Notes: generated from the sequence alone by a model not told the origin. A stretch of 64,000 bases of DNA from Vicinamibacteria bacterium (GCA_963422395.1 OY729431.1:2624151-2688150), one strand, 5' to 3'. Positions 1-26,513 are shown, numbered from the stretch's first letter. Numbers and translations are program-made.

Positions 1-1268
1 AAGCCTCGTCGGACGGCGGCGTCCCCGGCCCCATCTTCCATCCGGGACGGCTCTCCCGAAGGGGTCAGGTCGCCTTCTGCGGCCAATGCCACCGGCAGCC
101 GACCGACTTCGAGCCCCGCGCGATCCTGGCCCGCGATCCCGGCCTCGCCCGCCACGCCGGAGCGAGCCTGATGATGAGCGCCTGTTTCCGACAGTCGCCC
201 GCGGCGGCGACGATCGCCTGCTCCGACTGCCACGACCCCCATCGCGCAGAGGCCGCGGGTCCGGACCGGACCCGGTCGGTGTGTGCCCAGTGTCACGAAA
301 ACCCGGCCGCCCTTCACTCGCGGACGAGGGTTTCCGAGGTTTCCGACTGCGCCGGATGCCACCTGCCGACCGAGAGCGAGGCCTTCCACGGCTCCTCGTT
401 CACCGATCACTGGATTCGACAGCCCGGCGATCCGCCGCCCCCGCACTCGCCCGCAGGGCGCGCCGAACTCGCCTGGCTCGAAGAGCTCTACGCGGAACGG
501 GTGCTGGAAGAGCATCCACCACGAAAGGCGGCGCGGCTTCGGGCCGGACTGGCGGAACTCCTGCACCTCCGGGGAGCACGGGCCGAAGCGCAGGGCCTCC
601 TTCGGGAGGTGCTCGCACTCGGTGCCGACTACCAGACGCGGATGAAAGCCGGCGCGCTGCTGCGCGACGGGGGACGAAGCACCGAAGCCGTCGCGGTCTT
701 CCGAGAGGCCGCCCATGAACAGCCCGAGACGCCCCACGCCTTCTACGAACTGGGGGACCTGCTGCTCGAGTCCGGCGACTTCAGCGGCGCTGTGGAACCT
801 CTCGAAAGCGCCGCCGCGCTGAGCCCGGACTCTGCCGGGGTCCGGGCAGCACTCGGCGCGGCGCTGGCCGGCGCCGGCCGGCCCGGAGAAGCCGTCGCAG
901 TGTTCCGGGAAGCCCTCGTCCTGGACCCGGATGCGCCTGCGGCGCTCGGCCCGCTCGCGGGGATCCTGGCTGCCCACCCGCAGCGCGCGCTGCGAAACCC
1001 CGCAGAAGCGGTCCGCCTCGCCGAACGGCTGGCGGGCGGGTTCTCGTTTCGCGAGCCGCGTTCGCTGGATGTCCTCGGGGCCGCCTACGCCGCCGTCGGA
1101 GATTTCAGGAGCGCGGTCGAAGCGGCGGAACGGGCTGCCGAGCTGGCAGCCGCCGGGGGCGCCCTGGATCAGGCCGCCGCCATCCGCCAGCGCCTCGCGC
1201 TCTACCGCGTGCAGCGTCCGTATATCGGCCCGCTGCCAGCGGGCGCGCCCGGTCGATCCCGCCCCTGA
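1..1268 (+). CDS. Multihaem c-type cytochrome fused to TPR repeats (5'-partial, runs off left edge)
   Basis: Frame 3 is open from nt 3. Four CxxCH haem motifs: CGQCH at 78-92 (upstream of the first Met of listed ORF 171..1268), then CSDCH, CAQCH, CAGCH. These are followed by about 250 aa of Ala/Leu-rich TPR-like repeats. Stop at 1266-1268. Confidence 0.75.
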   Translation, partial: ASSDGGVPGPIFHPGRLSRRGQVAFCGQCHRQPTDFEPRAILARDPGLARHAGASLMMSACFRQSPAAATIACSDCHDPHRAEAAGPDRTRSVCAQCHENPAALHSRTRVSEVSDCAGCHLPTESEAFHGSSFTDHWIRQPGDPPPPHSPAGRAELAWLEELYAERVLEEHPPRKAARLRAGLAELLHLRGARAEAQGLLREVLALGADYQTRMKAGALLRDGGRSTEAVAVFREAAHEQPETPHAFYELGDLLLESGDFSGAVEPLESAAALSPDSAGVRAALGAALAGAGRPGEAVAVFREALVLDPDAPAALGPLAGILAAHPQRALRNPAEAVRLAERLAGGFSFREPRSLDVLGAAYAAVGDFRSAVEAAERAAELAAAGGALDQAAAIRQRLALYRVQRPYIGPLPAGAPGRSRP

Positions 1269-1558
1269 ATCGCCGGCTCGCGGAGCGCCGATCTCGGAAG
1301 CGACGCTCTGACCCGCCAGGATCGACTCGTGCGTCTGCCGCCGGAACGCTCCAGCGCCCTGCGCGATCGGCTGACCGGAATCCCAGCCGTCGAACACATT
1401 TCGGATCGGCCTCGCGAGCGAGCGGCTTCTTCCCCGGGGTGTTTCCGGCTTCGTTTCCGGACGGTCCGGCAGCGGCGAACCCGCGGGTACACTGCGCCGT
1501 CGAGGCGCCTGTCGAGCGCCGGCGGCCCTTCGCAGACCTTCCTCCAGGAGCGACATCC

Positions 1559-2695
1559 ATGATTCCCGACCCGAGACCCCTCGCGCTTTCGAGCGCCCTC
1601 TGTTGTAGCTTGGCTCTCGTCGCCGCCGGATGCGGCGGTAGCGGCCCGCCGCCCGAAGCCCCGGCCCCTGCTGGAAACGCCGATCTGGTCCAGCGAATCC
1701 TGCCGAACCCGAATCCGGTGGTGATCACCGAGTGGGCGGCCCTGCCCGACGGACGCAACTGGGGCTCCACCGCCGGAGTGGACATCGGCCCCGACGGTCA
1801 TGTCTGGGCCTACGACCGTTGCGGCGCGAACGCCCTCGCCGGAGGCTGTGAGGAGAATCCCACGGTGCATCCGGTGCTGAAGTTCGACCGCCACACCGGA
1901 GAAGTGCTCGCCGAATTCGGCGCCGGACTCTTCGTGCTCCCCCACGGACTCCATGTGGATGCCGAAGGGAATGTGTGGGTAACAGATTCCCAGGGGAACG
2001 AAGCCGGCACCAAGGGACACCAGGTGATCAAGTTCAGCCCCGAGGGCGAAGTCCTGCTGCGTCTCGGGACCGCCGGGCAACCCGGGAGCGGGCCCGGTCA
2101 GCTGAACGAGCCCTGCGATGTCATCACCGCGCCGAACGGCGACATCTTCGTCTCCGACGGCCACAGCGGCCAGAATCCCGACCCGCCCGCGGGGCGCACC
2201 GGTCGGATCCTCAAATTCAGCCCGGATGGCGAGTTCCTCATGGAGTGGGGGAGCATCGGATTCCGCCCGGGCCAGTTCCGCACCCCGCACGCGCTGGAGT
2301 TCGATTCGGCTGGCCGCCTCTTCGTGGCCGACCGGGGCAACCACCGGATCCAGATCTTCGACCAGGAAGGCAACCTGCTCGACACCTACCACCAGTTCGG
2401 CCGCATCAGCGGTCTGTTCATCACCGAAGACGACACCCTCTACGCGATCGATTCCGAATCGCAGGAGCAGAGCCACTACGGCTGGATGAACGGGGTGCGG
2501 ATCGGTCCCGCGGGCGAGGACCGGGTCACCGGATTCATCCCGCCGCATACCCCCACCGAGGGACGGATGCTTCAGGGGGTCGCCGGTGAAGGGGTAGCGG
2601 TGGACGCCGACGGCCAGATCTTCGTCGCCGAGGGTCCAGCCTCCCGCCCATTCGCCGGCGGCGGGCTCACGAAGTACGAACGCGCACCGAACTGA
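1559..2695 (+). CDS. NHL-repeat beta-propeller lipoprotein (peptidyl-alpha-hydroxyglycine lyase-like)
   Basis: ATG 1559 preceded by GGAG (1547-1550). N-terminus MIPDPRPLALSSALCCSLALVAAGC has a lipobox. Repeated blades PHGLHVDAEGNVWVTD, LNEPCDVITAPNGDIFVSD, FRTPHALEFDSAGRLFVADRGNHRIQIFD. The listed ORF starts at GTG 1439, but that extension is not signal-like. Confidence 0.8.
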   Translation: MIPDPRPLALSSALCCSLALVAAGCGGSGPPPEAPAPAGNADLVQRILPNPNPVVITEWAALPDGRNWGSTAGVDIGPDGHVWAYDRCGANALAGGCEENPTVHPVLKFDRHTGEVLAEFGAGLFVLPHGLHVDAEGNVWVTDSQGNEAGTKGHQVIKFSPEGEVLLRLGTAGQPGSGPGQLNEPCDVITAPNGDIFVSDGHSGQNPDPPAGRTGRILKFSPDGEFLMEWGSIGFRPGQFRTPHALEFDSAGRLFVADRGNHRIQIFDQEGNLLDTYHQFGRISGLFITEDDTLYAIDSESQEQSHYGWMNGVRIGPAGEDRVTGFIPPHTPTEGRMLQGVAGEGVAVDADGQIFVAEGPASRPFAGGGLTKYERAPN

Positions 2696-2888
2696 GGCGT
2701 CGAGAACCCGCCGCTGCCTCCGGCAGGCCCGAGGCGCATCTCAAGCATCTGGCCCGTGGCCGGGAAAAGCACCATCGGCAAGTGCAGAGGTATATCTCGC
2801 TCTCGCAAGGGTGCGCCCCCGTCCGTGGTTTAAAAAATACCTGTTGCGACCGAGCCTCCGGCTCGGGCGCGGCGCAGCGGGGGTATGT

Positions 2889-2916
2889 GTGAAAGGGGGG
2901 GATCCCCCCCTTTCAC
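2889..2916. repeat. 28-nt perfect palindrome GTGAAAGGGGGGGATCCCCCCCTTTCAC (copy 1)
   Basis: Read directly. It is its own reverse complement, centred on GGATCC/GATC, with G7 and C7 runs. Confidence 0.95.
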
Positions 2917-3182
2917 GAATTGGTACCTCGAATCGCGCCCGCTGCCGCACCATCCCAGCCTGACCGCGAACCGAGTCCGGAGAACCAGGCGAGCGGCAGG
3001 AGTGCGATTCCCGGCGCGGAGCGCCGGGCGGTCCGGGAGCGGGGCGTCCCCGTGCATCCCATCAGAACGCGAGACGCGACACGACATCACGCCCCGAGAC
3101 GAGAGCGACCCCCGTCCGTGGCTTAAAAAACAACCTGTTGCGACCGAAGCTCCGCTTCGGGCGCGGCCCAGCGGGGGTATGG

Positions 3183-3210
3183 GTGAAAGGGGGGGATCCC
3201 CCCCTTTCAC
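3183..3210. repeat. 28-nt perfect palindrome GTGAAAGGGGGGGATCCCCCCCTTTCAC (copy 2)
   Basis: Identical to 2889-2916. Confidence 0.95.
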
Positions 3211-3406
3211 GAATTGGTACCTCGAATCGCGCCCGCTGCCGCACCATCCCAGCCTGACCGCGAACCGAGTCCGGAGAACCAGGCGAGCGGCAGGAGTGCG
3301 ATTCCCGGCGCGAAGCGCCGGGCGCTTCGGATGCGGGGCGTCCCGCTCTTCCCACCAGAGCGTATGACGCAACACGACATCATGCCCCGCACCCGGAGCG
3401 CTCAGC

Positions 3407-3491
3407 CGGAGGGAGGGGGATTCGAACCCCCGGACCCTTTCGGGTCAATGGTTTTCAAGACCACCGCCTTCAGCCGCTCGGCCATCCCTCC
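3407..3491 (-). tRNA. tRNA-Ser (anticodon UGA)
   Basis: Minus-strand sequence GGAGGGATGGCCGAGCGGCTGAAGGCGGTGGTCTTGAAAACCATTGACCCGAAAGGGTCCGGGGGTTCGAATCCCCCTCCCTCCG. 7-bp acceptor, anticodon loop CTTGAAA, long variable arm, GGTTCGAATCC T-arm. CCA is not encoded. Confidence 0.93.
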
Positions 3492-3586
3492 GGTGCCCAA
3501 CCCCGCCGCCGGCCGCCGCCAACCAACCCTCGACAGGCCCGCCCGACGAGGCGCCCCCAGAGAGGGCAGCCTCGCCCGGTGGTGTG

Positions 3587-4555
3587 TTATTCCGACTTCG
3601 GCAGAGCGTCGAGCATCGCCTGGGCCTGTGCCGCAGCGGGGCTGTCCGGCTCGACCTCGATCGCCATCTGCAGGTGTTCGGCAGCGGAGTCCATGTTCCC
3701 CTGATTGAGGTGCACCATGGCGATCTGCAGGTGGGGCTCGGCCCAGTCCAGACGCCGATCGGCCGCCTCGGCGTAGAACTCGATGGCCTTGTCCATCTCC
3801 CCGTTGTTGAAGTAGATCTGGCCCACATTGAACGGGATCACCTCGTCGTCGGTGGCACCCACCGCCGCTTCGAAATGGGTGACGGCGGTTTCGAGATCTC
3901 CGACGGCAACCGCCATCTCCGCGAGCGAAACATGCGCTCCAGCGTTTTCGGCCTCCTGAACGAGCACGAGCTCATAGGCAGCCCTCGCCTCGTCGGGCCG
4001 GTCCAGCTCGCGAAGCGCCGCGCCGCGGTTCAGATGCACCTGGTACATGGTCGGATCCTGCATCAGCACTTCGTCGTACCGAACGAGCGCTTCCTCGAAA
4101 CGACCCGCCTGATGAAGCTCCTGGGCCTCGGCCAGGAGCCCGCCCCCGGTGCCCGCCGACTGGCCCATCTGGGCCGGTTCGAGGACGAGGTCCATGTCGG
4201 GATTCTTCCCCGCCTGCTTCATCGGCGCCTGGTAGTTGTAGGGCATGTATCCCGGCGCCTGAACCGAGAAGTCGTACGCCCGGCTGCGAAAGCCGAGGAT
4301 GGCCCAGCGGCCCCGGTCATCCGTGGTGGCTTCGAGAATTCGCGACGAATCTCCCGCCTGTGCGGTTACGTTGGCGCCTTCGATCGGGTTGCCGGTCGGG
4401 TCCTTCACCGTCCCGGAAACGCGGCCCGTTCCCATCTGCGCCAGCACCGGCTGGGCGAGCAGAACGAGAGCGGCAGCAACGACGAAACCAGGGGCGAGAC
4501 GACTGGTGAGACCATGGGCCGGGAGACCGGTGTTCTGAACGGTGCACTTTCTCAT
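3587..4555 (-). CDS. Secreted CarboxypepD_reg-like domain + TPR repeat protein
   Basis: ATG 4555 preceded by AAGGAG. Signal peptide ...[39 protein letters not shown]...[10 protein letters not shown] (carboxypeptidase-regulatory-like fold), then TPR-like repeats. The listed ORF 3587..5119 runs through tRNA-Gln, so its upstream part is rejected. Confidence 0.8.
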
Positions 4556-4650
4556 CGGAAATCTCCTTCGAGGCCTCCTCTGGCCCCGTTCGCTCCGGGT
4601 CCATCCTCGGGAACGCACCCGAAAAAGGATCCCTTCCACAGACGGTCGGC

Positions 4651-4724
4651 TGGCTGGGAAGCAGGGACTCGAACCCCGATTCCACGGTCCAGAGCCGTGT
4701 GTCCTGCCATTGGACGACTTCCCA
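4651..4724 (-). tRNA. tRNA-Gln (anticodon CUG), CCA encoded
   Basis: Minus-strand TGGGAAGTCGTCCAATGGCAGGACACACGGCTCTGGACCGTGGAATCGGGGTTCGAGTCCCTGCTTCCCAGCCA. Anticodon loop CTCTGGA, cloverleaf pairs check by hand. Confidence 0.92.
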
Positions 4725-4845
4725 GTGCGCGGACCCGTTGGACGGACTCGTGAGAATAGCAGGATCGGCAGTCGGATCCGGGCCGCCCGCCCCCACCGTG
4801 TACCATCCCGGCGCCTCTGGCGGAAAGCTCGCCGGAGTGGGCGCT

Positions 4846-4932
4846 GGAGAGGTGCTGGAGTGGCTGAACAGGGCTGCCTGCTAAGCAGTTGCGCGGGAAC
4901 CCGCGCCGAGGGTTCGAATCCCTCCCTCTCCG
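4846..4932 (+). tRNA. tRNA-Ser (anticodon GCU)
   Basis: GGAGAGGTGCTGGAGTGGCTGAACAGGGCTGCCTGCTAAGCAGTTGCGCGGGAACCCGCGCCGAGGGTTCGAATCCCTCCCTCTCCG. Anticodon loop CTGCTAA, long variable arm. CCA is not encoded. Confidence 0.93.
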
Positions 4933-4937
4933 CCGTT

Positions 4938-7799
4938 CTGCGGGCGCTCCGGTGCCTGCTGCTCGGCGCCGGGCTCTGCCTCCTGCCAACCGTCGAAGGA
5001 CTCGCCGCCGTCGCGCAGCCGACCGGCGGGGTGGACGGGGTGGTTCTCGACGCCACTGGCGCGGTGCTCCCCGGCGCCCGGGTCACCCTCGTGCTCAGCG
5101 GCCGCGGCACCCGCCGCACCCAGGCCGCCGGCCCTTCGGGACGCTTCGGATTCGTCGGCCTGCCCCCCGGCGGCTACCGCATTTCCGCTACTCATCCGGG
5201 CTTTCAGGACTCGCCGCCGGCGGAAGTGGCCGTCGAGGCCGGCTCGGTCGTGGAGATCCGTCTCGAGCTCGCGCTCGCCGGCATCACCGAGAGCGTTTCG
5301 GCAGTCTCCCGACGGCCGCTGGATCTCCGGGGAAGCGGAGTTCGGGAAACCGTGGATCGGCCAGTGCTCGAGGAGCTGCCGAACACCCGCGACCTCTGGA
5401 CGGTGCTCGAGCAGACACCGGGCATCCTGATGTCCAAGATCAATGTGGGCGGCGCCGAGAGCGGCCAGCAATCGCTCTTCTCGGCGGCGGGCTCGGCATG
5501 GACCCAGAACCAGTACTACCTGAACGGGGTGAATGTGACGGACCCGGCGGCGATGGGCGCGACCATCACCTATTACGCCTTCGACAGCTTCGAGCAGGTG
5601 GAGGTTTCGACCGCCGGCCATCGCGCCGAAATCCAGACCCCGGGGGTGTTCTTGAACATCGTGACCCACCGGGGCGGCAACCGTTTCGCCGGCAGCGGCA
5701 ACCTCTTCTTCGAGCACGAACGCTTCCAGGCCGAAAACCTCGACGACGCCCTCCGCGCCCGCGGCGTGGGACAGGCGAACCGACTGCATCAGCTCCTCGA
5801 CTGGAGCGGCGATCTAGGCGGGCCCATCCTCCGGGACCGGGCCTGGTTCTATCTGAACCTCTCGCGCTTCCGCGTCGAACCGTATCTACCGGGGTTCTTC
5901 CTCGAGAACGGGGAACCCGGAGTGGACCTGACGGAACTCGACAACTTCCTCGCCCGAACGAGCCTCGAGGTCGCCGAGGGGCACGAGATCGGCCTGTTCT
6001 ACTACCGAAACGCCAAGTATCGGCCCTACCGCGGCGCGAGCCTCTTCCGGCCGCGTCCCGAAACGACTTTCCACCAGGATTCGGTGATGGCGCTCGGACA
6101 GCTCTCCTGGTCCGGGGTCTTCGACGAGTCGCTGCTGGTGGAGGCCCGCATCAGCCGGGTGGATCTCGACTTCCCTCTCGGACAGCAACCCGATGTGGAT
6201 CCGAACTTCTCCCGCTGGGAACTGAACACCGGCGTCTGGTACGGCGGTTCCGGGACGAACACCCACTACGAGCGCGACCGCTGGCAGGCGGGAGCGACAG
6301 CCACTCTCTTCCGCGACGGCCTGTTCGGCGCCGCCCACGAGTTCAAGGCGGGCTTCGAGGCCTCCCTCAACCCGGCCCGGACGACCTACGACCTGCACGG
6401 CGGCATCCTCTACATCCACGACCGGGTTCGCCCCATCGAAGTCCGGCTCTACAACGATCCGGTCGCGGTGCAGAACTTCACCCGCAATCTCGGCCTCTAC
6501 GCGCAGGACAGCCTGGTCCGGGGACGCCTCGCTCTCGAACTCGGCCTCCGCGCCGACTGGTGGAGGGCGGGATACCCCGAGCAGCAGAACGAACCCGGCG
6601 CCTGGAACGCGGCCTTCCGGAATTTCGGCATCCCGCAGAAGATCTCCGGCGCCTCGGGGCTCGTCTCCTGGTTCGGAATCGCCCCCCGAGTCGGGGTCAA
6701 CTATCAGCTCACCGGCGACGGCCGGACGCTGGTCCGGCTGAGCGCAGGGCGCTATCTCCACCAACTGGGCTTGAGCGTGCCGGAGTTCGGGAACCCCAAC
6801 GCCCGCGCCTCAGCGACCTTCCGCTTCGACGATCGGAATTTCGATGGGCTGGTGGACGAGGGCGAGGTGGATTTCGCCTCGCCGCTCGGCGTTTTCATCC
6901 CGGTGCGGAACGAAGTGGCCCCGGACCTCGCGCAGCCGGTGACCCACGAGCTGACCTTCGGGATCCAGCGCGATTTGCCCCTCGGAATCACCCTCGGCCT
7001 CACCGGGATCCTCCGCTCCGAGCGGAACCTGATCGAAGACACCGACATCGGAGTTCCGGGAAGCGCCTGGCATCCGGTCCCCCATCTGGACCCGGGCCGC
7101 GACTTCGTCCGCGGCAGCGACGACGATAACCCGATCACCCTCTGGCTGCAGGATCCGACGACGCTCGGGCAGAGCCGCTTTCGGCTCGAAAATCCGGGGA
7201 TCGGCGCGAGCTACCGAGGACTGATCCTGGAGGCGCGGAAGCGGTATTCCTCGGGTTGGCAGCTTCTGGCGTCGGTTACCGCAAGCCGCTCCGTCGGCTG
7301 GCTTTCAGGCCCCGGGGACCAGACGAACGAGGCCACCGGGTTCCCCGGGGTGCTCTTCGACAACCCCAACCACGGCGAGCTGCACCAGGGGCGCACCTTC
7401 TGGGACCGCCCCTTCCTGGCGCGGGTCTCCGGCAGCTACCGCCTTCCCTGGGGGTTCGCGGTGGCGGGTTCCTTTCGCGCCCACTCGGGTTGGCCCAATT
7501 ACCGCTCGGTGGTCTTCACCGGGACCCTGGACGGCCGGCCACTGCCGCAGGGCATGACCGAAGTGATCGTCGAGCCGCCGGGAGCGTCGCGTTCCCCGGC
7601 GGTTCCACTCCTCGATCTGCGCCTCGATTACCGGCTCGATCTGCCTGGTTCCGCAGAACTCTCGACCTATTTCGATGTCTTCAACGCGCTGAACTGGAAC
7701 CATGTCGTCGGGGAGGGCTCCCGAGACGACTCCTTCGGCGCGGTGGTGGGGATCCTCCCGCCGCGAGTGGCTCGCGTCGGCGCCCGCCTGCGCTTCTGA
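4938..7799 (+). CDS. TonB-dependent-receptor-like outer membrane protein with N-terminal CarboxypepD_reg domain (start uncertain)
   Basis: Signal-like LRALRCLLLGAGLCLLPTVEGLAAVAQ. GVDGVVLDATGAVLPGARVTLV...GGYRISATHPGF (CarboxypepD_reg). Plug-like DLWTVLEQTPGI...VGGAESGQQ. Long beta-rich body ending in RF, a typical OMP terminus. No ATG/GTG/TTG lies between the tRNA end (4932) and the signal peptide. CTG 4938 is the only candidate start there; the next GTG is near 5031. Confidence 0.7.
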   Translation: MRALRCLLLGAGLCLLPTVEGLAAVAQPTGGVDGVVLDATGAVLPGARVTLVLSGRGTRRTQAAGPSGRFGFVGLPPGGYRISATHPGFQDSPPAEVAVEAGSVVEIRLELALAGITESVSAVSRRPLDLRGSGVRETVDRPVLEELPNTRDLWTVLEQTPGILMSKINVGGAESGQQSLFSAAGSAWTQNQYYLNGVNVTDPAAMGATITYYAFDSFEQVEVSTAGHRAEIQTPGVFLNIVTHRGGNRFAGSGNLFFEHERFQAENLDDALRARGVGQANRLHQLLDWSGDLGGPILRDRAWFYLNLSRFRVEPYLPGFFLENGEPGVDLTELDNFLARTSLEVAEGHEIGLFYYRNAKYRPYRGASLFRPRPETTFHQDSVMALGQLSWSGVFDESLLVEARISRVDLDFPLGQQPDVDPNFSRWELNTGVWYGGSGTNTHYERDRWQAGATATLFRDGLFGAAHEFKAGFEASLNPARTTYDLHGGILYIHDRVRPIEVRLYNDPVAVQNFTRNLGLYAQDSLVRGRLALELGLRADWWRAGYPEQQNEPGAWNAAFRNFGIPQKISGASGLVSWFGIAPRVGVNYQLTGDGRTLVRLSAGRYLHQLGLSVPEFGNPNARASATFRFDDRNFDGLVDEGEVDFASPLGVFIPVRNEVAPDLAQPVTHELTFGIQRDLPLGITLGLTGILRSERNLIEDTDIGVPGSAWHPVPHLDPGRDFVRGSDDDNPITLWLQDPTTLGQSRFRLENPGIGASYRGLILEARKRYSSGWQLLASVTASRSVGWLSGPGDQTNEATGFPGVLFDNPNHGELHQGRTFWDRPFLARVSGSYRLPWGFAVAGSFRAHSGWPNYRSVVFTGTLDGRPLPQGMTEVIVEPPGASRSPAVPLLDLRLDYRLDLPGSAELSTYFDVFNALNWNHVVGEGSRDDSFGAVVGILPPRVARVGARLRF

Positions 7800-7827
7800 G
7801 AGAACCGGCTGCCAGCGGCCTGACGGC

Positions 7828-9996
7828 CTACTGACCGTGCGGTCCCTCCGGAGGGGCGCCGATCGCTTTCAAGCGCTCCCGGAGCGCGGGCTGGTCCGGA
7901 TGGAGCTCCAAGGAGCGACCGAAAGCAGCCCGCGCCTCCTCGATCCGTCCGGTACGCGCGTAGGCGTCACCGAGGACATTCAGCAACGGAGGGTCGGCGG
8001 TGCGGAGCCCGGAAGCGCGCTCGAGGTGCTCCACGCTCGCGGCGAAATCCCCTTCGAAGAAGCGGACGAATCCCAGTCCGCTGACGACTTCGAAGACCTC
8101 GGAGAATTCCTCGGCCATGGGGTCGAGCAGCGCCGCCGCCTCGGCGATGCGCATCTTCTGCAAGTAGCCGTGAGCCAGCTTCCAGCGCGCCGCCGGCAAC
8201 TGCGGGTTTCCCGCGGCGACCGCGTTCTCGTATTCCCGGAGCGCTTCGTCGAAGCGCGACATCGCCGCGAACTGATCGCCGCGCACCAGGGGAAGCAGCC
8301 CGGGCGTCTCCGGGTTGAAACCGCGCCGGTACACGAAGCCGGCCCGGGGAACCCCCGCGCGCGGGGATACCTGGAGGCGGCGCTCCTTGCGATCGAGCAC
8401 CGCCCCGGAAGCGTCCTCGAGGCTCGCCCGCAGCCAGTAGTTGCCGCCCACGCCCAGATCGAGCGGCAGCCGGCCGAGCAGCGCGCCCGAAGCCGGCGCC
8501 GCGACCGAGACCTCGGCCAGCGGCTCGCCGTCCGGATCGCCGGAGGCATCCGCGAAAACCTGGAAGCGAACCTGCTGCCCCGCCGCCGGGTCGAGGATGT
8601 GGGTGAAGGCGTGGAGCGTCTCTCCGAGCGCGAAGAGCCCGTCGGCGGCCGGTTTGACGCGCACATGTCCCACCTGGAAGGTGCGGATGGCGTCGGCGAA
8701 CGGGGCCTCCTCCAGATCGGTGCTCTCGAACCCGACGATCACATCGGCGAGACGAGGTGTCCCTGGCGCCCCCCCGTCGGGGCTTGCGAACCGGGTGGTG
8801 TCGAGGCTCTCCTCGAGCACGGTGAACTGCTGGACGGCGCGGTTCCGGACGACGATGCTCAGCTCGTATCGGCCAGGAAGCAGCGGCACGCTGTCCTGGT
8901 AGGCGAAGGGCGAGCCGCGAACCTGATCCACCTGGGTGCGGGTGAGTTCGAGATAGGCCGGCCGGTCCACCGCCAGCACCGTCACATCGTTCTCGTCCAC
9001 CGCTTCCACCGAGATATCGAGGGTGGTGTAGAACTTCGTCTGGTCCTCATCGGTCTCGAGGGTGAAGTTCTGCGGATCGATCTCCACGCTGAAGTGGACG
9101 AAGGGGGTGCGGAAGGGACCGCCGGTGATGCCGAAGACGCCGCGGCTCGGCACGAAATTGAAGGAGTAGTCGGCGGATACCCGGTCCCGGTAGCGCAGCC
9201 AGGCGTCGGCGTAGTCGGTGCGGATCGCCCGCCGCGGGGAATCGGCGACGCGGGCGAGCAGCAGATCGCTCGACAGCGAGGCGCGTCCGGAGGTCCAGTC
9301 GCCGGGCTCCGAAGGGTCGAGCGAGAGCGAGGCGTTCGCCAGCTCGACATCGACGCGCTGCAAGACCTCGTAGGCCCGGACATTCCCCTCGGGGCCGCCG
9401 CCCTGGGTGTATTGGCCCCGCACCAGCGATTCCGGGCCGTCCACCACCGGGTGGTAGAGCCGGTACTCGCCCACATCGTGGCGCTTGAAGAAGAGGAGGT
9501 AGAAGAACGAAGGCAGTCCCCGCTGGACATCCCCCTGGTAGAACCAGAGCTCGCTCGACACGACCTCGTTGTAGCCGTCGAAGGCGTGCCGCTCGCGGGG
9601 CTCGCCGAGCAGGATGTAGTAGCGGCCGCGGTCGGTACGCCAGCCGTCGCGGAAGGTGTCCCGCCCGAGGTATTCGTTCGCGTACTCGATCCGTTCGTAG
9701 TGCTCGTCGCGGAACTCGTTCTCTGGAGTCGCCGGGTAGGGATCGCGCTTTTCCCAGAAGACTTCGATGAAGCGGATGCGCTCCTCGAGGGTCTCGAGGC
9801 TGAGGAACACCTCCTCCTCGCGATCGGTGATGATGTACACCACCTCCGCTTCGAGCCATCGGCGGTGGTCCTCGCGCAGCCGCTCGAGCTGCTCGTCCCG
9901 GCTGAGCTCTTCCTGGGCCGCGGCGGCTCCGGAGGGCCGGCAAACGGCGAGCAGGCCGATCGTCAGACCGGCCGTGAGGAAGACCGCGCGGTTCAT
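7828..9996 (-). CDS. Secreted GWxTD-domain protein with C-terminal TPR repeats
   Basis: Signal peptide MNRAVFLTAGLTIGLLAVC. FWEKRDPYPATPENEFRDEHYERIEYANEYLGRDTFRDGWRTDRGRYYILLGEP matches the GWxTD signature. TPR-like C-terminus. The ATG overlaps the stop of the upstream regulator (ATGA, 9993-9996). Confidence 0.8.
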   Translation of the reverse strand: MNRAVFLTAGLTIGLLAVCRPSGAAAAQEELSRDEQLERLREDHRRWLEAEVVYIITDREEEVFLSLETLEERIRFIEVFWEKRDPYPATPENEFRDEHYERIEYANEYLGRDTFRDGWRTDRGRYYILLGEPRERHAFDGYNEVVSSELWFYQGDVQRGLPSFFYLLFFKRHDVGEYRLYHPVVDGPESLVRGQYTQGGGPEGNVRAYEVLQRVDVELANASLSLDPSEPGDWTSGRASLSSDLLLARVADSPRRAIRTDYADAWLRYRDRVSADYSFNFVPSRGVFGITGGPFRTPFVHFSVEIDPQNFTLETDEDQTKFYTTLDISVEAVDENDVTVLAVDRPAYLELTRTQVDQVRGSPFAYQDSVPLLPGRYELSIVVRNRAVQQFTVLEESLDTTRFASPDGGAPGTPRLADVIVGFESTDLEEAPFADAIRTFQVGHVRVKPAADGLFALGETLHAFTHILDPAAGQQVRFQVFADASGDPDGEPLAEVSVAAPASGALLGRLPLDLGVGGNYWLRASLEDASGAVLDRKERRLQVSPRAGVPRAGFVYRRGFNPETPGLLPLVRGDQFAAMSRFDEALREYENAVAAGNPQLPAARWKLAHGYLQKMRIAEAAALLDPMAEEFSEVFEVVSGLGFVRFFEGDFAASVEHLERASGLRTADPPLLNVLGDAYARTGRIEEARAAFGRSLELHPDQPALRERLKAIGAPPEGPHGQ

Positions 9997-22284: not shown

Positions 22285-23577
22285 ATGGAAATCCTGGTCG
22301 CGCTGATCGCGGCGGCGGGGCTCCTGCTCGTCGGGATCCCCATCGGCTATGTGCTGATCGCGGCGTCGGTGGCCGCCATCTGGCTCACCACCGACACCCC
22401 GCTGGTGGTCGTTCCGCTCCGCCTCTTCAACGGAACCGACTCCTTCCCGCTGGTCGCCATCCCGCTCTTCATCCTCGCCGGCTCGCTGATGAACCACGCC
22501 GGGATCTCCCGTCGGCTCACCGACTTCGCCGCCTCGATCGTGGGTTGGATGCGCGGCGGGCTGGCCATGACCACCACCGCCTCCAGCATGCTCTTCTCGG
22601 AGATGTCGGGCTCGGCGGTCGCCGATGCCGCCGCTCTCGGCAGCGTGCTGATTCCCGCGATGAAGGACCGCGGCTATCCGGCGCCTTTCGCCGCTGCGGT
22701 GCTCTCCTCCTCGGCGACGATCGCCATCCTCATCCCGCCTTCGATCCCGATGATCCTCTACGGGGCGGTGACCGGCGCCTCCATCGCCCGGCTGTTCCTC
22801 GCCGGAGTCGTCCCGGGGCTCCTCGCGGGCGTCCTCATCATGGCGGTCAGCCGGGCGCTCGCCCGGCGCGGCGGATTCGGCGATTCGGAGCCTTTCCGCT
22901 GGACGCAGGCGGCGGCGGCCTCCCGGAGGGCGGCATGGCCGCTCCTGATTCCGGCAGTGATCCTGGGCGGCATCTTCCTCGGCTGGTTCACTGCGACCGA
23001 AGCGGCGGCGGTGGCGGTTCTGCTCGCGCTCCTCATGGGGACCGCCGGCTACCGCAGCGTCGGACTCGAGCAGGTGCGCGGCGCCTTCACCGAATCCGCC
23101 CGCCAGACCGCAGTGGTCATGCTGCTCGTCGCCGGGTCTGCCATCCTCGGCTGGTATCTGGCAAACCAGCAGGCACCCGAGCGGCTCGCCGCCTTCGTCC
23201 TCTCGCGAGCCGACTCCCCCTGGATGGTGGCGATCGTTCTCGACGGCCTGCTGCTGCTCGCGGGAACGATCCTCCACAGCGCCGCCGCGGTGGTGCTGCT
23301 CGTTCCCATCCTGCTGCCGCTGGCCGAGTCCGCCGGCATCGGCCCGGTCCACTTCGGGATGATGGTCACGGTGAGCCTCGCAGTCGGGCAGCAGACCCCG
23401 CCGGTCGCCTCGGTCCTCATCACCACCTGCTCCATCGCCAAGACCGGAATCTCGGAGGTGATGCGGTTCAATGTGTTCTTCATCGCGGCGCTGCTCGTCG
23501 TGCTGGCGATCGTGACCTGCTGGCCCGAGGTGAGCCTGCTGCTGCCCGACCTGCTGCTCGGCGGCCCCGGAAACTGA
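22285..23577 (+). CDS. dctM: TRAP transporter large permease (DctM family)
   Basis: 430 aa polytopic protein. DctM-like PLFILAGSLMNHAGISRRL, ...SGSAVADAAALGSVLIPAM. Confidence 0.92.
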   Translation: MEILVALIAAAGLLLVGIPIGYVLIAASVAAIWLTTDTPLVVVPLRLFNGTDSFPLVAIPLFILAGSLMNHAGISRRLTDFAASIVGWMRGGLAMTTTASSMLFSEMSGSAVADAAALGSVLIPAMKDRGYPAPFAAAVLSSSATIAILIPPSIPMILYGAVTGASIARLFLAGVVPGLLAGVLIMAVSRALARRGGFGDSEPFRWTQAAAASRRAAWPLLIPAVILGGIFLGWFTATEAAAVAVLLALLMGTAGYRSVGLEQVRGAFTESARQTAVVMLLVAGSAILGWYLANQQAPERLAAFVLSRADSPWMVAIVLDGLLLLAGTILHSAAAVVLLVPILLPLAESAGIGPVHFGMMVTVSLAVGQQTPPVASVLITTCSIAKTGISEVMRFNVFFIAALLVVLAIVTCWPEVSLLLPDLLLGGPGN

Positions 23578-23685: not shown

Positions 23686-23758
23686 GGGGCTGTGGCGCAA
23701 CTGGGAGCGCGCGTGAATGGCATTCACGAGGTCACGGGTTCGATCCCCGTCAGCTCCA
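23686..23758 (+). tRNA. tRNA-Ala (anticodon GGC)
   Basis: GGGGCTGTGGCGCAACTGGGAGCGCGCGTGAATGGCATTCACGAGGTCACGGGTTCGATCCCCGTCAGCTCCA. The G3:U70 identity pair is present. Anticodon loop ATGGCAT. Confidence 0.93.
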
Positions 23759-23847
23759 CCGGATGCCTTCCGGCGGCGAACCGGCCCGAAATCCCGAGGG
23801 CCCAGGCCGTGGGGGTCAGAACCGCGGGGGTCGAAACCGCGAGCAAG

Positions 23848-23942
23848 GGAAGCGCATGGGGTCTGGCGGCCTCCGCGGACTTCAAATCCGTTGATTCCGG
23901 GTTAGCCCCCGGGATGGTGGGTTCGATTCCCACACGCTTCCG
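23848..23942 (+). tRNA. selC: tRNA-Sec (selenocysteine, anticodon UCA)
   Basis: GGAAGCGCATGGGGTCTGGCGGCCTCCGCGGACTTCAAATCCGTTGATTCCGGGTTAGCCCCCGGGATGGTGGGTTCGATTCCCACACGCTTCCG. GGACTTCAAATCC anticodon arm, extended acceptor, long variable arm. Close in layout to E. coli selC (GGAAGATCG...GGACTTCAAATCC...GATCTTCCG). Confidence 0.85.
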
Positions 23943-23999
23943 CCGGGGGACTGCGGGCAGGGCGGTGCACACGGCGTCCCGACCCGAACTCCGACCGGT

Positions 24000-26513
24000 G
24001 TGACTCCCGAAATGGACTCCGATCCGAACGCCGGCCGGAGCCCGAAGAAACTACCGCCCGGAGAGACTTCCCTCACCGCTCCCGAGCGCCGCTCCGCCAT
24101 TCGCTCGCTGGTCGCCGAGCTCGGCGGGGGCGCCCTGTTCTCCGGGATCACCGCGCTGCGCCACTTTTCCGCCCAGCCCGCGGAATACCGCGACTTCCCC
24201 GAACACATCGCGGCGCCGCTCCGCGAAGCGTACCGAGAAAAGGGCGTGGAACAGCTCTACTCGCACCAGCGCGAGGTGCTCGACCGGGTGGAGGACGGAG
24301 AGGATGTCGCGGTGGTCACTCCGACCGCCTCGGGGAAGACCCTCGCCTACAACGCGCCGGTCCTGAACCGGATCCTTCGGGAGCCGGACGCCCGGGCGCT
24401 CTATCTCTTTCCCACGAAGGCACTGTCGCGCGACCAGCGGAAGGAACTCCTCGAGCTGAAGGACCTGCTCGGCGAGGACATCCGCGCCGAGGTCTATGAC
24501 GGGGACACGCCGGCCGATGCCCGGCGCAGCCTGCGGGCGCGCGCGCACATCGTGATCACGAACCCGGACATGCTCCACGCGGGCATCCTGCCCCACCACA
24601 CGAAGTGGGCCAAGCTGTTCGAGAACCTCCGCCTGATCGTCATCGACGAGATGCACACCTACCGGGGCGTGTTCGGAAGCCACCTCGCCAACCTGCTGCG
24701 CCGGCTTCGCCGGATCACCCGGTACTACGGCGCCGAGCCGCAGTTCCTCCTGAGTTCGGCCACCATCGCGAATCCGGGCGAGCTCGCCGAACGGCTGACC
24801 GAGCGGCGGGTCTCGCTCGTAACGCGGAGCGGCGCGCCGCGGCCGGAGCGGTTCTTCGTCTTCTACAACCCGCCGGTGGTGAACGCCGAGCTCGGCATCC
24901 GCCGTTCCGCCCTCGAGGAAGCGCGGCGCATCGCCCGCGGCTTCCTGAAGGGGAACCTGCAGACGATCGTCTTCGCCCGCTCGCGCAGCCACACCGAGAT
25001 CCTCGTCAAATACCTGAAACGCGATCTCGAGACCCGGCCCGACCGGAGCGGCCTCATCCGCGGCTACCGCGGCGGCTATCTGCCGAAGAAGCGGCGCGAG
25101 ATCGAGGACGGGATCAAGCGGGGCAGCGTCTTGGGAGTGGTCTCTACGAACGCGCTGGAGCTCGGTATCGACATCGGCGGACTCGATGTGGCGGTGATCG
25201 CCGGCTATCCGGGGACGATCGCCTCGACCTGGCAGCAGGCGGGACGGGCGGGCCGCCGGGGCGGGACGGCGGCCGCAGTGCTCGTCGCGGGGTCCGCTCC
25301 CATCGACCAGTTCGTAATCCAGCACCCCGACTACTTCTTCGAAGGGAGCCCGGAACGCGGCCTCATCGATCCGGACAACTTGTCGATCTTGCTGGAACAC
25401 CTGAAGTGCGCGGCGTTCGAGCTGCCCTTCCAGAAGGGCGAGACTTTCGGCAAGGAGGATCTCGAAGGGTTGCTCGAGGTGCTCGAGGAAGAGGAGATCC
25501 TCTATCGGTCCGGTGAGCGCTGGTTCTGGACTGCGGACTCCTATCCGGCGAACAGCGTGAGCCTCCGCTCCATCAGCTCCGACAACTTCGTGGTCCACGA
25601 CCGGGAGAGCGGCCGGATCATCGGAGAAGTGGATTTCGTGAGCGCCCATTCGACACTGCACGAAAAGGCGATCTACCTGGTGGAGAGCGAGACCTGGTTC
25701 GTCGAACGTCTCGACCATCAGGGGCGCCGCGCCGAAGTGCGGAAGATCGAGAGCGACTACTACACCGATGCCGTAACCCACACCCGGGTGAGCGTCCTCG
25801 ACCGCTTCGCCGCCTCCTCCGAATCGGCCGCCCCCGCCGCGCACGGCGAGGTGCATGTGCTGCAACAGGTGGTGGGCTTCAAGAAGATCCGATTCTTCAC
25901 GGGGGAGATCGTCGGCTCCGGAGAGCTCGACCTGCCGGCCGTGGAGATGCACACCACCGCGTTCTGGCTGGAGGCGCCAATCGAGGTGCTGCACGCCATC
26001 CCCTTCGGCCCCGAGGACCGGCGTGACGGCGTGCAGGGAATCCGAAGCGCCCTGCGCGCGGTCGCGGCGACCTTCCTCATGTGCGAGCCCGGAGACCTCG
26101 GCGCCGCCATCGGGAGCCGGGCGGACGAGGACCTCGCTGCCGACGATCCTCCAGAAGGAGCCGGCGGGTTGCTCGGGACGCCGCAGATCTTCATCTACGA
26201 CGACTATCCGGGCGGCATCGGCTTTTCGGAACCGCTCTACGAGTCTCGCGCAGCGCTGCTGCGGGAGACACTGGGTCTCATCGAACGCTGCCCGTGCCAG
26301 GCCGGCTGCCCGTCGTGCGTCGGGCCGGTCGGAGAAGTGGGGCGGAACGGGAAGCGGGCGGCAGTGGCGATCCTGCGGGGCCTTCGAAACCAGCAGTCAG
26401 CGGGCAACGAGGTCGAGCCGGCCGAAGAACTTCCGGCTGGCGAAGCGGCGGCTCGGGGGATCGCCGCAGCCGGGAAGGGATCCGCCCCTGCCGCAGATCC
26501 CGCTGCCCCGTGA
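24000..26513 (+). CDS. mrfA: DEXH-box helicase with C-terminal DUF1998/MZB zinc domain (MrfA/YprA-like)
   Basis: Motif I TPTASGKT, motif II VIDEMH, later helicase motifs (SSAT, TNALELGIDIG, QQAGRAGRR). C-terminal CPCQAGCPSCVG cysteine cluster. Start is GTG 24000 or ATG 24012. Confidence 0.85.
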   Translation: MTPEMDSDPNAGRSPKKLPPGETSLTAPERRSAIRSLVAELGGGALFSGITALRHFSAQPAEYRDFPEHIAAPLREAYREKGVEQLYSHQREVLDRVEDGEDVAVVTPTASGKTLAYNAPVLNRILREPDARALYLFPTKALSRDQRKELLELKDLLGEDIRAEVYDGDTPADARRSLRARAHIVITNPDMLHAGILPHHTKWAKLFENLRLIVIDEMHTYRGVFGSHLANLLRRLRRITRYYGAEPQFLLSSATIANPGELAERLTERRVSLVTRSGAPRPERFFVFYNPPVVNAELGIRRSALEEARRIARGFLKGNLQTIVFARSRSHTEILVKYLKRDLETRPDRSGLIRGYRGGYLPKKRREIEDGIKRGSVLGVVSTNALELGIDIGGLDVAVIAGYPGTIASTWQQAGRAGRRGGTAAAVLVAGSAPIDQFVIQHPDYFFEGSPERGLIDPDNLSILLEHLKCAAFELPFQKGETFGKEDLEGLLEVLEEEEILYRSGERWFWTADSYPANSVSLRSISSDNFVVHDRESGRIIGEVDFVSAHSTLHEKAIYLVESETWFVERLDHQGRRAEVRKIESDYYTDAVTHTRVSVLDRFAASSESAAPAAHGEVHVLQQVVGFKKIRFFTGEIVGSGELDLPAVEMHTTAFWLEAPIEVLHAIPFGPEDRRDGVQGIRSALRAVAATFLMCEPGDLGAAIGSRADEDLAADDPPEGAGGLLGTPQIFIYDDYPGGIGFSEPLYESRAALLRETLGLIERCPCQAGCPSCVGPVGEVGRNGKRAAVAILRGLRNQQSAGNEVEPAEELPAGEAAARGIAAAGKGSAPAADPAAP

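Follow-up and report, generated by a model that had tools for sequence, protein, structure and literature searches.

We analysed a 64-kb stretch of DNA (64,000 nucleotides, hereafter the window) from a Vicinamibacteria bacterium (GCA_963422395.1 OY729431.1:2624151-2688150). On its minus strand, a tRNA-Ser(UGA) gene is followed directly at its 3' end by two head-to-tail units of about 294 nt, u2 next to the tRNA and u1 distal to it (Table 1). An earlier sequence-only reading had proposed that the pair is a duplicated, structured non-coding element linked to the tRNA. Single copies of the same element at the 3' end of the orthologous tRNA, in the same orientation, in four related contigs support this proposal.

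Two tandem units at the 3' end of tRNA-Ser(UGA)

The tRNA-Ser(UGA) gene is 93–99% identical to the orthologous tRNA of relatives. ARAGORN and Rfam placed its 3' end at 3405/3407, with the discriminator G at 3407, and the gene does not encode CCA. A direct-repeat search paired 2829-3050 with 3123-3344 (222 nt, 94% identity, spacing 294) and found flanking pairs spaced by 293. By blastn, u1 and u2 were 91% identical over 282 nt (E=1e-110). A MAFFT alignment agreed with both searches, confirming the two units as they had been proposed. Tandem Repeats Finder did not report them, presumably because a long period is repeated here just twice. A covariance model of the element scored 191.5 bits on u2 (3165-3410) and 169.1 bits on u1 (2871-3115), and neither this model nor blastn found a further copy of the unit elsewhere in the window. 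A candidate degenerate third unit in 2696-2815 was rejected, its local alignment score being inside the range of shuffled sequences.

The units differ at 36 positions, indels included, and the distribution of these differences is strongly non-uniform. In a global alignment read in the sense of the tRNA, 26 differences fell in the first 94 nt, none in the next 130 nt, and 9 in the last 74 nt. At the mutation rate of the flanks, an identical stretch of 130 nt has a probability of <1e-7 by our arithmetic. This is the core that had been located at 2889-3018 and 3183-3312 from the sequence alone, and not one difference was found in it. The same reading was right about substitutions in the flanks, but the single 1-nt indel that it described is in fact one indel of 5 nt, at the tRNA-proximal edge, and two of 1 nt.

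Table 1. Features of the tRNA-Ser(UGA) locus, in window coordinates
Feature	Coordinates	Strand	Basis	Details
tRNA-Ser(UGA)	3407..3492	minus	ARAGORN; Rfam RF00005	58.5 bits (Rfam)
Proximal unit u2	3109..3406	minus	direct-repeat search	conserved element 3165-3406; window-specific 3' extension 3109-3164
u2 P1, long hairpin	3322..3401	minus	RNAalifold	18-bp lower stem, 3401-3384 with 3339-3322; apex variable
u2 P2, GC hairpin	3305..3321	minus	RNAalifold and covariation table	CCGGCGC-UUC-GCGCCGG
u2 P3, long hairpin	3224..3304	minus	RNAalifold	P3a, 3304-3299 with 3229-3224; P3b, 3296-3287 with 3242-3232
u2 P4, palindrome	3183..3210	minus	inverted-repeat search and shuffle count	28-nt perfect palindrome; 12-13-bp hairpin
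u2 C-rich tail	3171..3182	minus	alignments of the copies	single-stranded; CCAUACCCCCGC
u2 3' extension	3125..3160	minus	sequence inspection	hairpin P5 (3144-3160), 13-nt spacer, U6 run (3130-3125)
Distal unit u1	2816..3108	minus	direct-repeat search and MAFFT	conserved element 2871-3108; 3' extension 2816-2870
u1 P1 region	3028..3108	minus	alignment	degenerate; 7/18 lower-stem positions mispaired
u1 P2, P3 and P4	2889..3027	minus		P2 3011-3027, P3 2930-3010, P4 2889-2916; same helices as u2, 0 differences over 2889-3018
u1 3' extension	2832..2866	minus	sequence inspection	hairpin P5 (2850-2866), U6 run (2837-2832)

Conservation and structure of the element

We reached relatives of the locus through the synteny of the CarboxypepD_reg/TPR protein gene on its right-hand side (3587-4552, minus strand; TPR protein below). 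The nearest named genomes are Candidatus Marinacidobacterium metagenome-assembled genomes (Acidobacteriota, Vicinamibacteria), and the arrangement tRNA-Ser(GCU) / tRNA-Gln / TPR / tRNA-Ser(UGA) is kept in the relatives. The four contigs with a single copy of the element, found in tRNA sense by blastn and the covariance model, are L135, L136 and L138 (ENA ERZ19489113) and L137 (Logan SRR23261226). Their TPR proteins are 81–84% identical to that of the window. Counted by independence, the carriers, which belong to a small clade of marine Acidobacteria, make three lineages: the window, the L135/L136/L138 strain group, and L137. Because the four related contigs each carry one copy, the ancestral state, as read from these sequences, is a single copy, and the duplication is specific to the window genome. 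A neighbour-joining tree of the adjacent TPR protein groups the element-bearing contigs together; on this evidence the history of the element fits one gain followed by vertical descent.

Relatives without the element have 30–60 nt from tRNA-Ser(UGA) to a convergent seryl-tRNA synthetase gene (serS); the identity of their TPR protein to that of the window is 79% for L139–L141 and ~74% for L006 and L007. In these contigs the tRNA lies tail to tail with its own synthetase, the intervals from the tRNA to the serS stop being L006:5082-5112, L007:4973-5021 and L139:6039-6098. The tRNA-Ser(UGA) of the window is not adjoined by serS, and NHL and cytochrome/TPR genes are found there instead.

The element common to the six aligned copies is ~245 nt long and forms four hairpins, P1 to P4, with 71 pairs in the RNAalifold consensus. 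P1, P2 and P3 are contiguous, with zero linker nucleotides between them. P1 is in all six copies a long hairpin with an 18-bp lower stem and a variable apex, and starts ~10 nt past the tRNA discriminator; in u2, 16/18 pairs of the lower stem are Watson-Crick, one is G.U and one is C.A. P2 is a GC hairpin of 7–9 bp. Its stem is invariant in six of the six copies (7/7 pairs never vary), and its 3-nt loop is variable (UUC, UCC or UGC). In P3, the invariant pairing GAAUCG/CGAUUC forms the base, an internal loop leads to a second stem (CUCCYGCCGC/GCGGCRGCGRG), and the apex varies; pair 136-192 of P3 is U-A in the window and C-G in the relatives. A pyrimidine-rich linker of 12–14 nt separates P3 from P4, the palindrome, which occurs twice in the window versus 0 times in 100 shuffles. 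P4 is kept in the relatives, with a compensated A-U to G-C change in L137. The C-rich tail reads ACACUUUCCCCC and ACACCAUCCCCUC in the relatives; its CCCC run is kept in every copy and is unpaired in the consensus structure. The window units run ~58 nt past the conserved element, into an extension that has no sequence counterpart in the relatives. Judged by eye, the C-rich tail might also pair with the 5' leader, as a closing helix, or with the P1 apex, as a pseudoknot; both pairings were dropped, as neither was kept in the window copy.

Several of these helices had been noticed from the sequence alone. The 28-nt palindrome listed there (2889-2916 and 3183-3210) is P4, the GC hairpin (3010-3028 and 3304-3322) is P2, and the CTGCCGC/GCGGCAG pairing is P3b; the A6 tracts are also present, at 2832-2837 and 3125-3130. 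The long helix P1, with seven doubly compensated pairs, had not been described. The main structural argument had instead been the 7-bp hairpin that we call P5, at 2850-2866 and 3144-3160. Its two doubly compensated pairs between u1 and u2 are real, but it belongs to the extension that relatives do not share. Either selection on the hairpin or templated correction in a quasi-palindrome could have produced these pairs.

Covariation on aligned homologues had been named as a check on the proposal. We measured it on a model-fitted alignment of the six copies, with two controls: sliding the 3' partners by 1–3 columns and 500 shuffles. Standard pairs occupied 92.7% of the cells, versus 43–50% with slid partners. 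Nineteen pairs had changed on both sides, versus 8.1 ± 1.9 in the shuffles, and 0/500 shuffles reached 19. By helix, 7/18 pairs of the P1 lower stem, 1 pair in P3b and 2 pairs in P4 were doubly changed. The pairing of P1 is kept although its sequence is only 45–51% identical between lineages. The relatedness of the sequences is not corrected for in the shuffle control, and some support measures carry 5–25% false support; pair-count measures, said to be rarely inflated, also exceeded all shuffles.

Between lineages, the element varies little in length (242–249 nt) and is 61–65% identical; the spacers that flank it are 35–55% identical and differ two-fold in length. The co-occurring strains L136 and L138 are 98.9% identical, yet they differ by a 793-bp indel (L136:7307-8099 vs L138:2201) that takes out most of a decayed DUF4143 (AAA_14-type ATPase) gene and has its left edge at the 3' end of the element. 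Because the edge of the indel coincides with this end, we read the comparison as neighbouring DNA that decays while the element is retained.

The element carries no coding signal. Six-frame translation of the unit gave no homolog among 5.8 billion proteins, on which ground a pseudogene or small protein was rejected; Pfam had no match in the element, and its homologues are separated by 1-nt indels. The open reading frames across the units had been dismissed as junk, and these results agree. Nor did permissive scans with Rfam 15 (window 1-8000 and 2700-3500, L135 and L137) bring any family to its gathering threshold on the element; the matches over it were to tRNA, driven by the tRNA, or hairpin-level chance matches. 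The placement is not that of a riboswitch or T-box: the gene that comes next is a different one in each lineage, and in the window and L137 it converges on the element. A scan for intrinsic terminators called none in the window or L137; in L136 it gave two weak terminator-like sites on the sense strand, shortly past the element.

No sign of mobility was found in the unit itself. No inverted repeat joins its ends, and the junction sequences share no target-site duplication. Blastn-short with the tRNA found no partial tRNA copy of the att type in the window or the relatives' flanks, and no integrase is present among the neighbouring genes (NHL, cytochrome/TPR and DUF4143-remnant types) in the 3–6 kb of visible flank. 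The covariance model found no copy over ~1.2 Mb of retrieved loci besides those after tRNA-Ser(UGA). An exact scan for a 24-nt palindrome gave 0 matches in the contigs of species-representative genomes and in viral contigs. Plasmid and phage collections, queried by distant blastn with the element as found in the window, L135 and L137, returned no match, and viral scans with P2 and P3–P4 patterns gave nothing, or chance matches that the covariance model rejected. Across the loci and collections examined, the element had no recombinase, no att repeat and no extra-chromosomal relative. A miniature inverted-repeat transposable element (MITE) or an att-type site, allowed earlier as alternatives, are thus without support: terminal inverted repeats, tRNA-fragment repeats, plasmid or phage matches and dispersed copies were all missing from the loci searched.

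Two other search routes were abandoned. A looser palindrome pattern returned >120 terminator-like hairpins from metagenome contigs, which were unrelated to the element by blastn and the covariance model. Synteny through the left-hand NHL protein failed, as this is a multi-copy family in varied contexts with no tRNA nearby. The NHL-repeat protein gene of the window (1439-2695) has many paralogue-like relatives at 75–85% identity, located next to beta-lactamase, VWA, cytochrome/TPR or TonB-type outer-membrane protein genes; because these contexts differ, protein identity is a poor guide to orthology for the NHL protein.

Strand, transcription and competing explanations

The RNA strand is probably the tRNA-sense strand, the minus strand of the window. 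This strand is favoured because P1 starts ~10 nt past the tRNA in every lineage. In all five loci the element thus occupies the position of a tRNA 3' trailer, and there is no room for a promoter of its own. An antisense promoter would have to lie in the DNA beyond the element, and this DNA is different in each lineage. On the tRNA-sense strand, G.U cells outnumber A.C cells by 35 to 7 overall, and by 7 to 3 when helices are defined by Watson-Crick pairs and the distal copy is left out. Most polymorphisms between strains in P1, P3a and P3b are C-to-U changes, which preserve pairing on the sense strand only. U-rich stretches or terminator-like sites follow the element on this strand in the window and L136.

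We therefore favour, with a little better than even confidence, the reading that the element is a structured RNA, new and restricted to this clade, that is transcribed with tRNA-Ser(UGA) as its 3' trailer and has been duplicated in the window genome. Transcription would come from the tRNA-Ser promoter, because the gap between the tRNA and P1 is too short to hold another. Bacterial tRNA precursors that lack CCA are typically cut endonucleolytically after the discriminator, in RNase Z-type maturation. Such a cut would free the trailer with a defined 5' end. The near-perfect P1 duplex could be a site of double-strand-specific cleavage, and could act as a processing or stability stem. The freed trailer would then persist as a stable non-coding RNA, with the P2–P4 core and the C-rich tail as its functional part, working through protein binding or base-pairing.

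The duplication can be accommodated in the same scheme. The duplicated span starts at the tRNA end and stops shortly after the U6 run; the whole trailer unit, hairpin and U6 end included, has been copied in tandem. The proximal copy keeps all helices. The distal copy has lost the lower stem of P1, its P1 region being 71% identical to that of u2. The P2–P4 core of u1 is identical to that of u2 even in the P3 apex, which varies freely between lineages. Because the identity spans this otherwise unconstrained apex, it probably arose through gene conversion, rather than through purifying selection alone.

Several points weigh against a trailer RNA. From sequence alone we infer its RNA nature, the strand used, co-transcription, processing and any function in trans. 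The carriers form only three independent lineages, and with so few related sequences covariation statistics can come out too high. Prediction of the structure on the sense strand biases the G.U count. Folding energy does not separate the strands, the sense strand being more stable in four copies and the antisense strand in L137, and a three-sequence alifold slightly favours antisense. A canonical intrinsic terminator was missing from the calls in both the window and L137. The broken P1 of u1 means that not every copy is constrained. Finally, a DUF4143 ATPase remnant accompanies the element in two lineages, and the element may derive from inserted DNA.

The surroundings of the element bear on this last point. 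In L137 the order is tRNA, element, a DUF4143-type C-terminal remnant (L137:1575-1800) and serS, and in L135 and L136 a decayed DUF4143 gene follows the element. Because the outgroups have tRNA-Ser and serS directly convergent and two of the element-bearing lineages have DUF4143 remnants, the element may have entered the tRNA-Ser/serS site together with a DUF4143-type gene.

How far do other explanations account for the same data? The element could be co-transcribed and act only in cis, in termination, 3' processing or protection of the pre-tRNA, with a neutral duplication. The direct contact with the tRNA fits such a role, as do the hairpin and U6 run that end the window units and the terminator-like sense-strand sites soon after the element in L136; in outgroups that lack the element, too, a GC hairpin directly follows the tRNA, and P1 could be an expanded terminator. 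We nevertheless find a purely cis-acting trailer unlikely. An element of ~245 nt with four helices and invariant blocks (P2 and GAAUCG/CGAUUC) far exceeds what termination or processing needs, ~60 nt suffices in the sister lineages, the strongest sequence constraint is in P2–P4, distal to the tRNA, rather than in P1, and no canonical terminator was called in the window or L137. It is rather improbable, in our view, that selection acts on DNA instead, the element being the surviving border of an insert at tRNA-Ser (a recombination, attachment, protein-binding or structured single-stranded-DNA site) with hairpins that are DNA features and tandem copies left by repeated recombination. Compared with the outgroup order of tRNA-Ser then convergent serS, the element and its DUF4143-type gene do resemble an insertion into the 3' flank; homology of all lineages stops at the 3' boundary of the element, where the 793-bp indel starts; P4 is palindromic right through its centre; and neither strand is favoured by folding energy. 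This explanation has to contend with the lack of an att-type tRNA copy in the window or the relatives' flanks, of a consistently adjacent integrase or transposase, of terminal inverted repeats and of matches in plasmid, phage and viral collections. Moreover, P1 pairing that survives seven double changes at 45–51% identity is typical of a folded single strand and not of a duplex site recognised by its sequence, and the element stays while the neighbouring ATPase gene decays. A more speculative idea is one to which we give very little credence: the element might be the RNA, or the folded single strand, of a site-specific insertion system that uses the 3' flank of tRNA-Ser(UGA). As a guide, a bridge or a structure for recognition, it would then mark or program the hotspot, and the tandem copies would be the footprint of repeated recombination. 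Compatible with it are the variable DNA that begins exactly at the 3' end of the element in all lineages and the seeming arrival between tRNA-Ser and serS with an AAA_14/DUF4143 ATPase gene.

Transcription of the opposite strand is very unlikely. It would yield an antisense or independently promoted small RNA reading from the window plus strand towards the tRNA, and it draws on the mostly Watson-Crick helices, which fold well on both strands (z-scores of −3 to −9), on the antisense strand of L137, which is more stable by 28 kcal/mol, and on the upstream NHL gene of the window, which reads in the plus direction. It is at odds with the far-side DNA, where its promoter would have to lie and which no two lineages share, with the excess of G.U over A.C cells on the tRNA-sense strand and with the mostly C-to-U polymorphisms of P1, P3a and P3b, whose pairing is kept on the sense strand only. 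An assembly artefact behind the duplication, or a decayed protein-coding gene in this region, is scarcely credible. Long open frames do cross both units (2830-3375 minus and 2885-3367 plus), and 294, the spacing of the core, is divisible by 3. However, an artefact would give identical copies, and u1 and u2 differ at 36 positions with indels, unlike a collapsed or expanded repeat. Against a gene stand the lack of any six-frame homolog or Pfam match and the 1-nt indels between homologues, and by our estimate an open frame of 98 codons at 66% GC is expected in about 1 frame in 10.

Comparison with known RNAs and neighbouring features

The element resembles the tyrT/RtT RNA and RNAs from tRNA 3' external transcribed spacers (3'ETS) in layout, and belongs to neither family. 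RtT RNA, reportedly described by Bosl and Kersten in 1991, is said to come from 178-bp units repeated in tandem beyond tRNA-Tyr in the tyrT operon of E. coli (Rfam RF00391). Like these repeats, the window units are non-coding, lie head to tail and directly follow a tRNA gene, on its strand; in our proposal they would be released from the tRNA primary transcript, as is presumed for tyrT. In both cases the repeats are crossed by an open frame rich in Arg, which does not amount to evidence for a gene. The tyrT repeats each hold a piece of the tRNA 3' end, whereas the window units hold none and match no Rfam family, RF00391 included. Here, in addition, the ancestral state is a single copy, the duplication is genome-specific, and the unit is larger, with four conserved helices. 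The 3'ETS-leuZ of E. coli, reported by Lalaouna and colleagues in 2015, is said to be an Hfq-dependent sponge of ~50 nt that includes the operon terminator. If the trailer reading holds, each is a functional RNA that tRNA maturation frees from the precursor's 3' trailer, and neither has a promoter of its own; the window element is larger (~245 nt) and multi-helical, and its release is a prediction.

Among non-tRNA families, only sX4 (RF02223, a Xanthomonas small RNA) gave a low E-value (35.2 bits, E ~1e-5, in L135), with matches at window 3345-3501 on the minus strand and L135:6963-7107. Its model evidently comprises a complete tRNA-Ser and ~60 nt of trailer, a layout like that of our locus. 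However, the scores reached 21–35 bits where the gathering score is 70, the columns that match belong to the tRNA, and the trailer part aligns poorly and covers just the first 50 nt of P1. The sX4 model, since it holds tRNA-Ser, gives sub-threshold matches of low E-value on any tRNA-Ser gene. Another family, RF04351 (Plastid-psbl-rps4), matched the antisense strand of both tRNA-Ser genes of the window (3407-3456 plus and 4881-4932 minus).

With MITEs and repetitive extragenic palindromic (REP)-type repeats, the element shares a GC-rich, hairpin-forming, non-coding and intergenic sequence in more than one copy. It differs from them in having no terminal inverted repeats and no dispersed copies in the 64-kb window or in ~1.2 Mb of retrieved loci, and in being fixed in position and orientation beside one tRNA in all lineages.

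If it is transcribed, the element would found a new structured RNA family from Vicinamibacteria, and it would be a large, multi-helix addition to the few known functional RNAs from tRNA 3' trailers. To our knowledge, almost no non-coding RNAs have been characterised in this largely uncultured acidobacterial class. The tandem duplication provides a natural experiment, in which one copy has all helices and the other lacks P1. Because the distal copy lost P1 and keeps an identical P2–P4 core, the pattern points to this core as the functional part. The reach of the finding is limited, as the element has so far been seen in only three lineages; the covariance model and a defined locus, from tRNA-Ser(UGA) to serS, are ready for wider searches.

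The tRNA-Ser(UGA) gene belongs to a compact tRNA cluster (window 3407-4934) whose synteny is kept across the clade. In it, tRNA-Ser(UGA) and tRNA-Gln(CUG), both on the minus strand, flank the gene of the CarboxypepD_reg/TPR protein, which is a secreted protein; tRNA-Ser(GCU) is divergent on the plus strand and is followed by a TonB-type outer-membrane protein gene. In two of the contigs that lack the element, a separate 111-aa open reading frame with a Seryl_tRNA_N domain lies directly upstream of full-length serS (L139:7386-7721 and L141:2725-3060); it may have arisen by duplication or splitting of the N-terminal domain.

Elsewhere in the window (23686-23944), tRNA-Ala(GGC) is followed 88 nt further on by tRNA-Sec(UCA). 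The two tRNA genes are bordered by a TRAP-transporter DctM gene (22285-23577) on one side and by a DEAD/MrfA-type helicase gene (24000-26513) on the other. Because the window contains this tRNA-Sec(UCA) gene, the genome presumably uses selenocysteine.

Genes of DDE transposases (DDE_Tnp_1) were found a few kb from the conserved loci, at L135:779-2506 and L133:10444-13238. One such gene, inserted upstream of the tRNA cluster, distinguishes L135 from L136, and insertion sequences therefore appear to be active in these populations.

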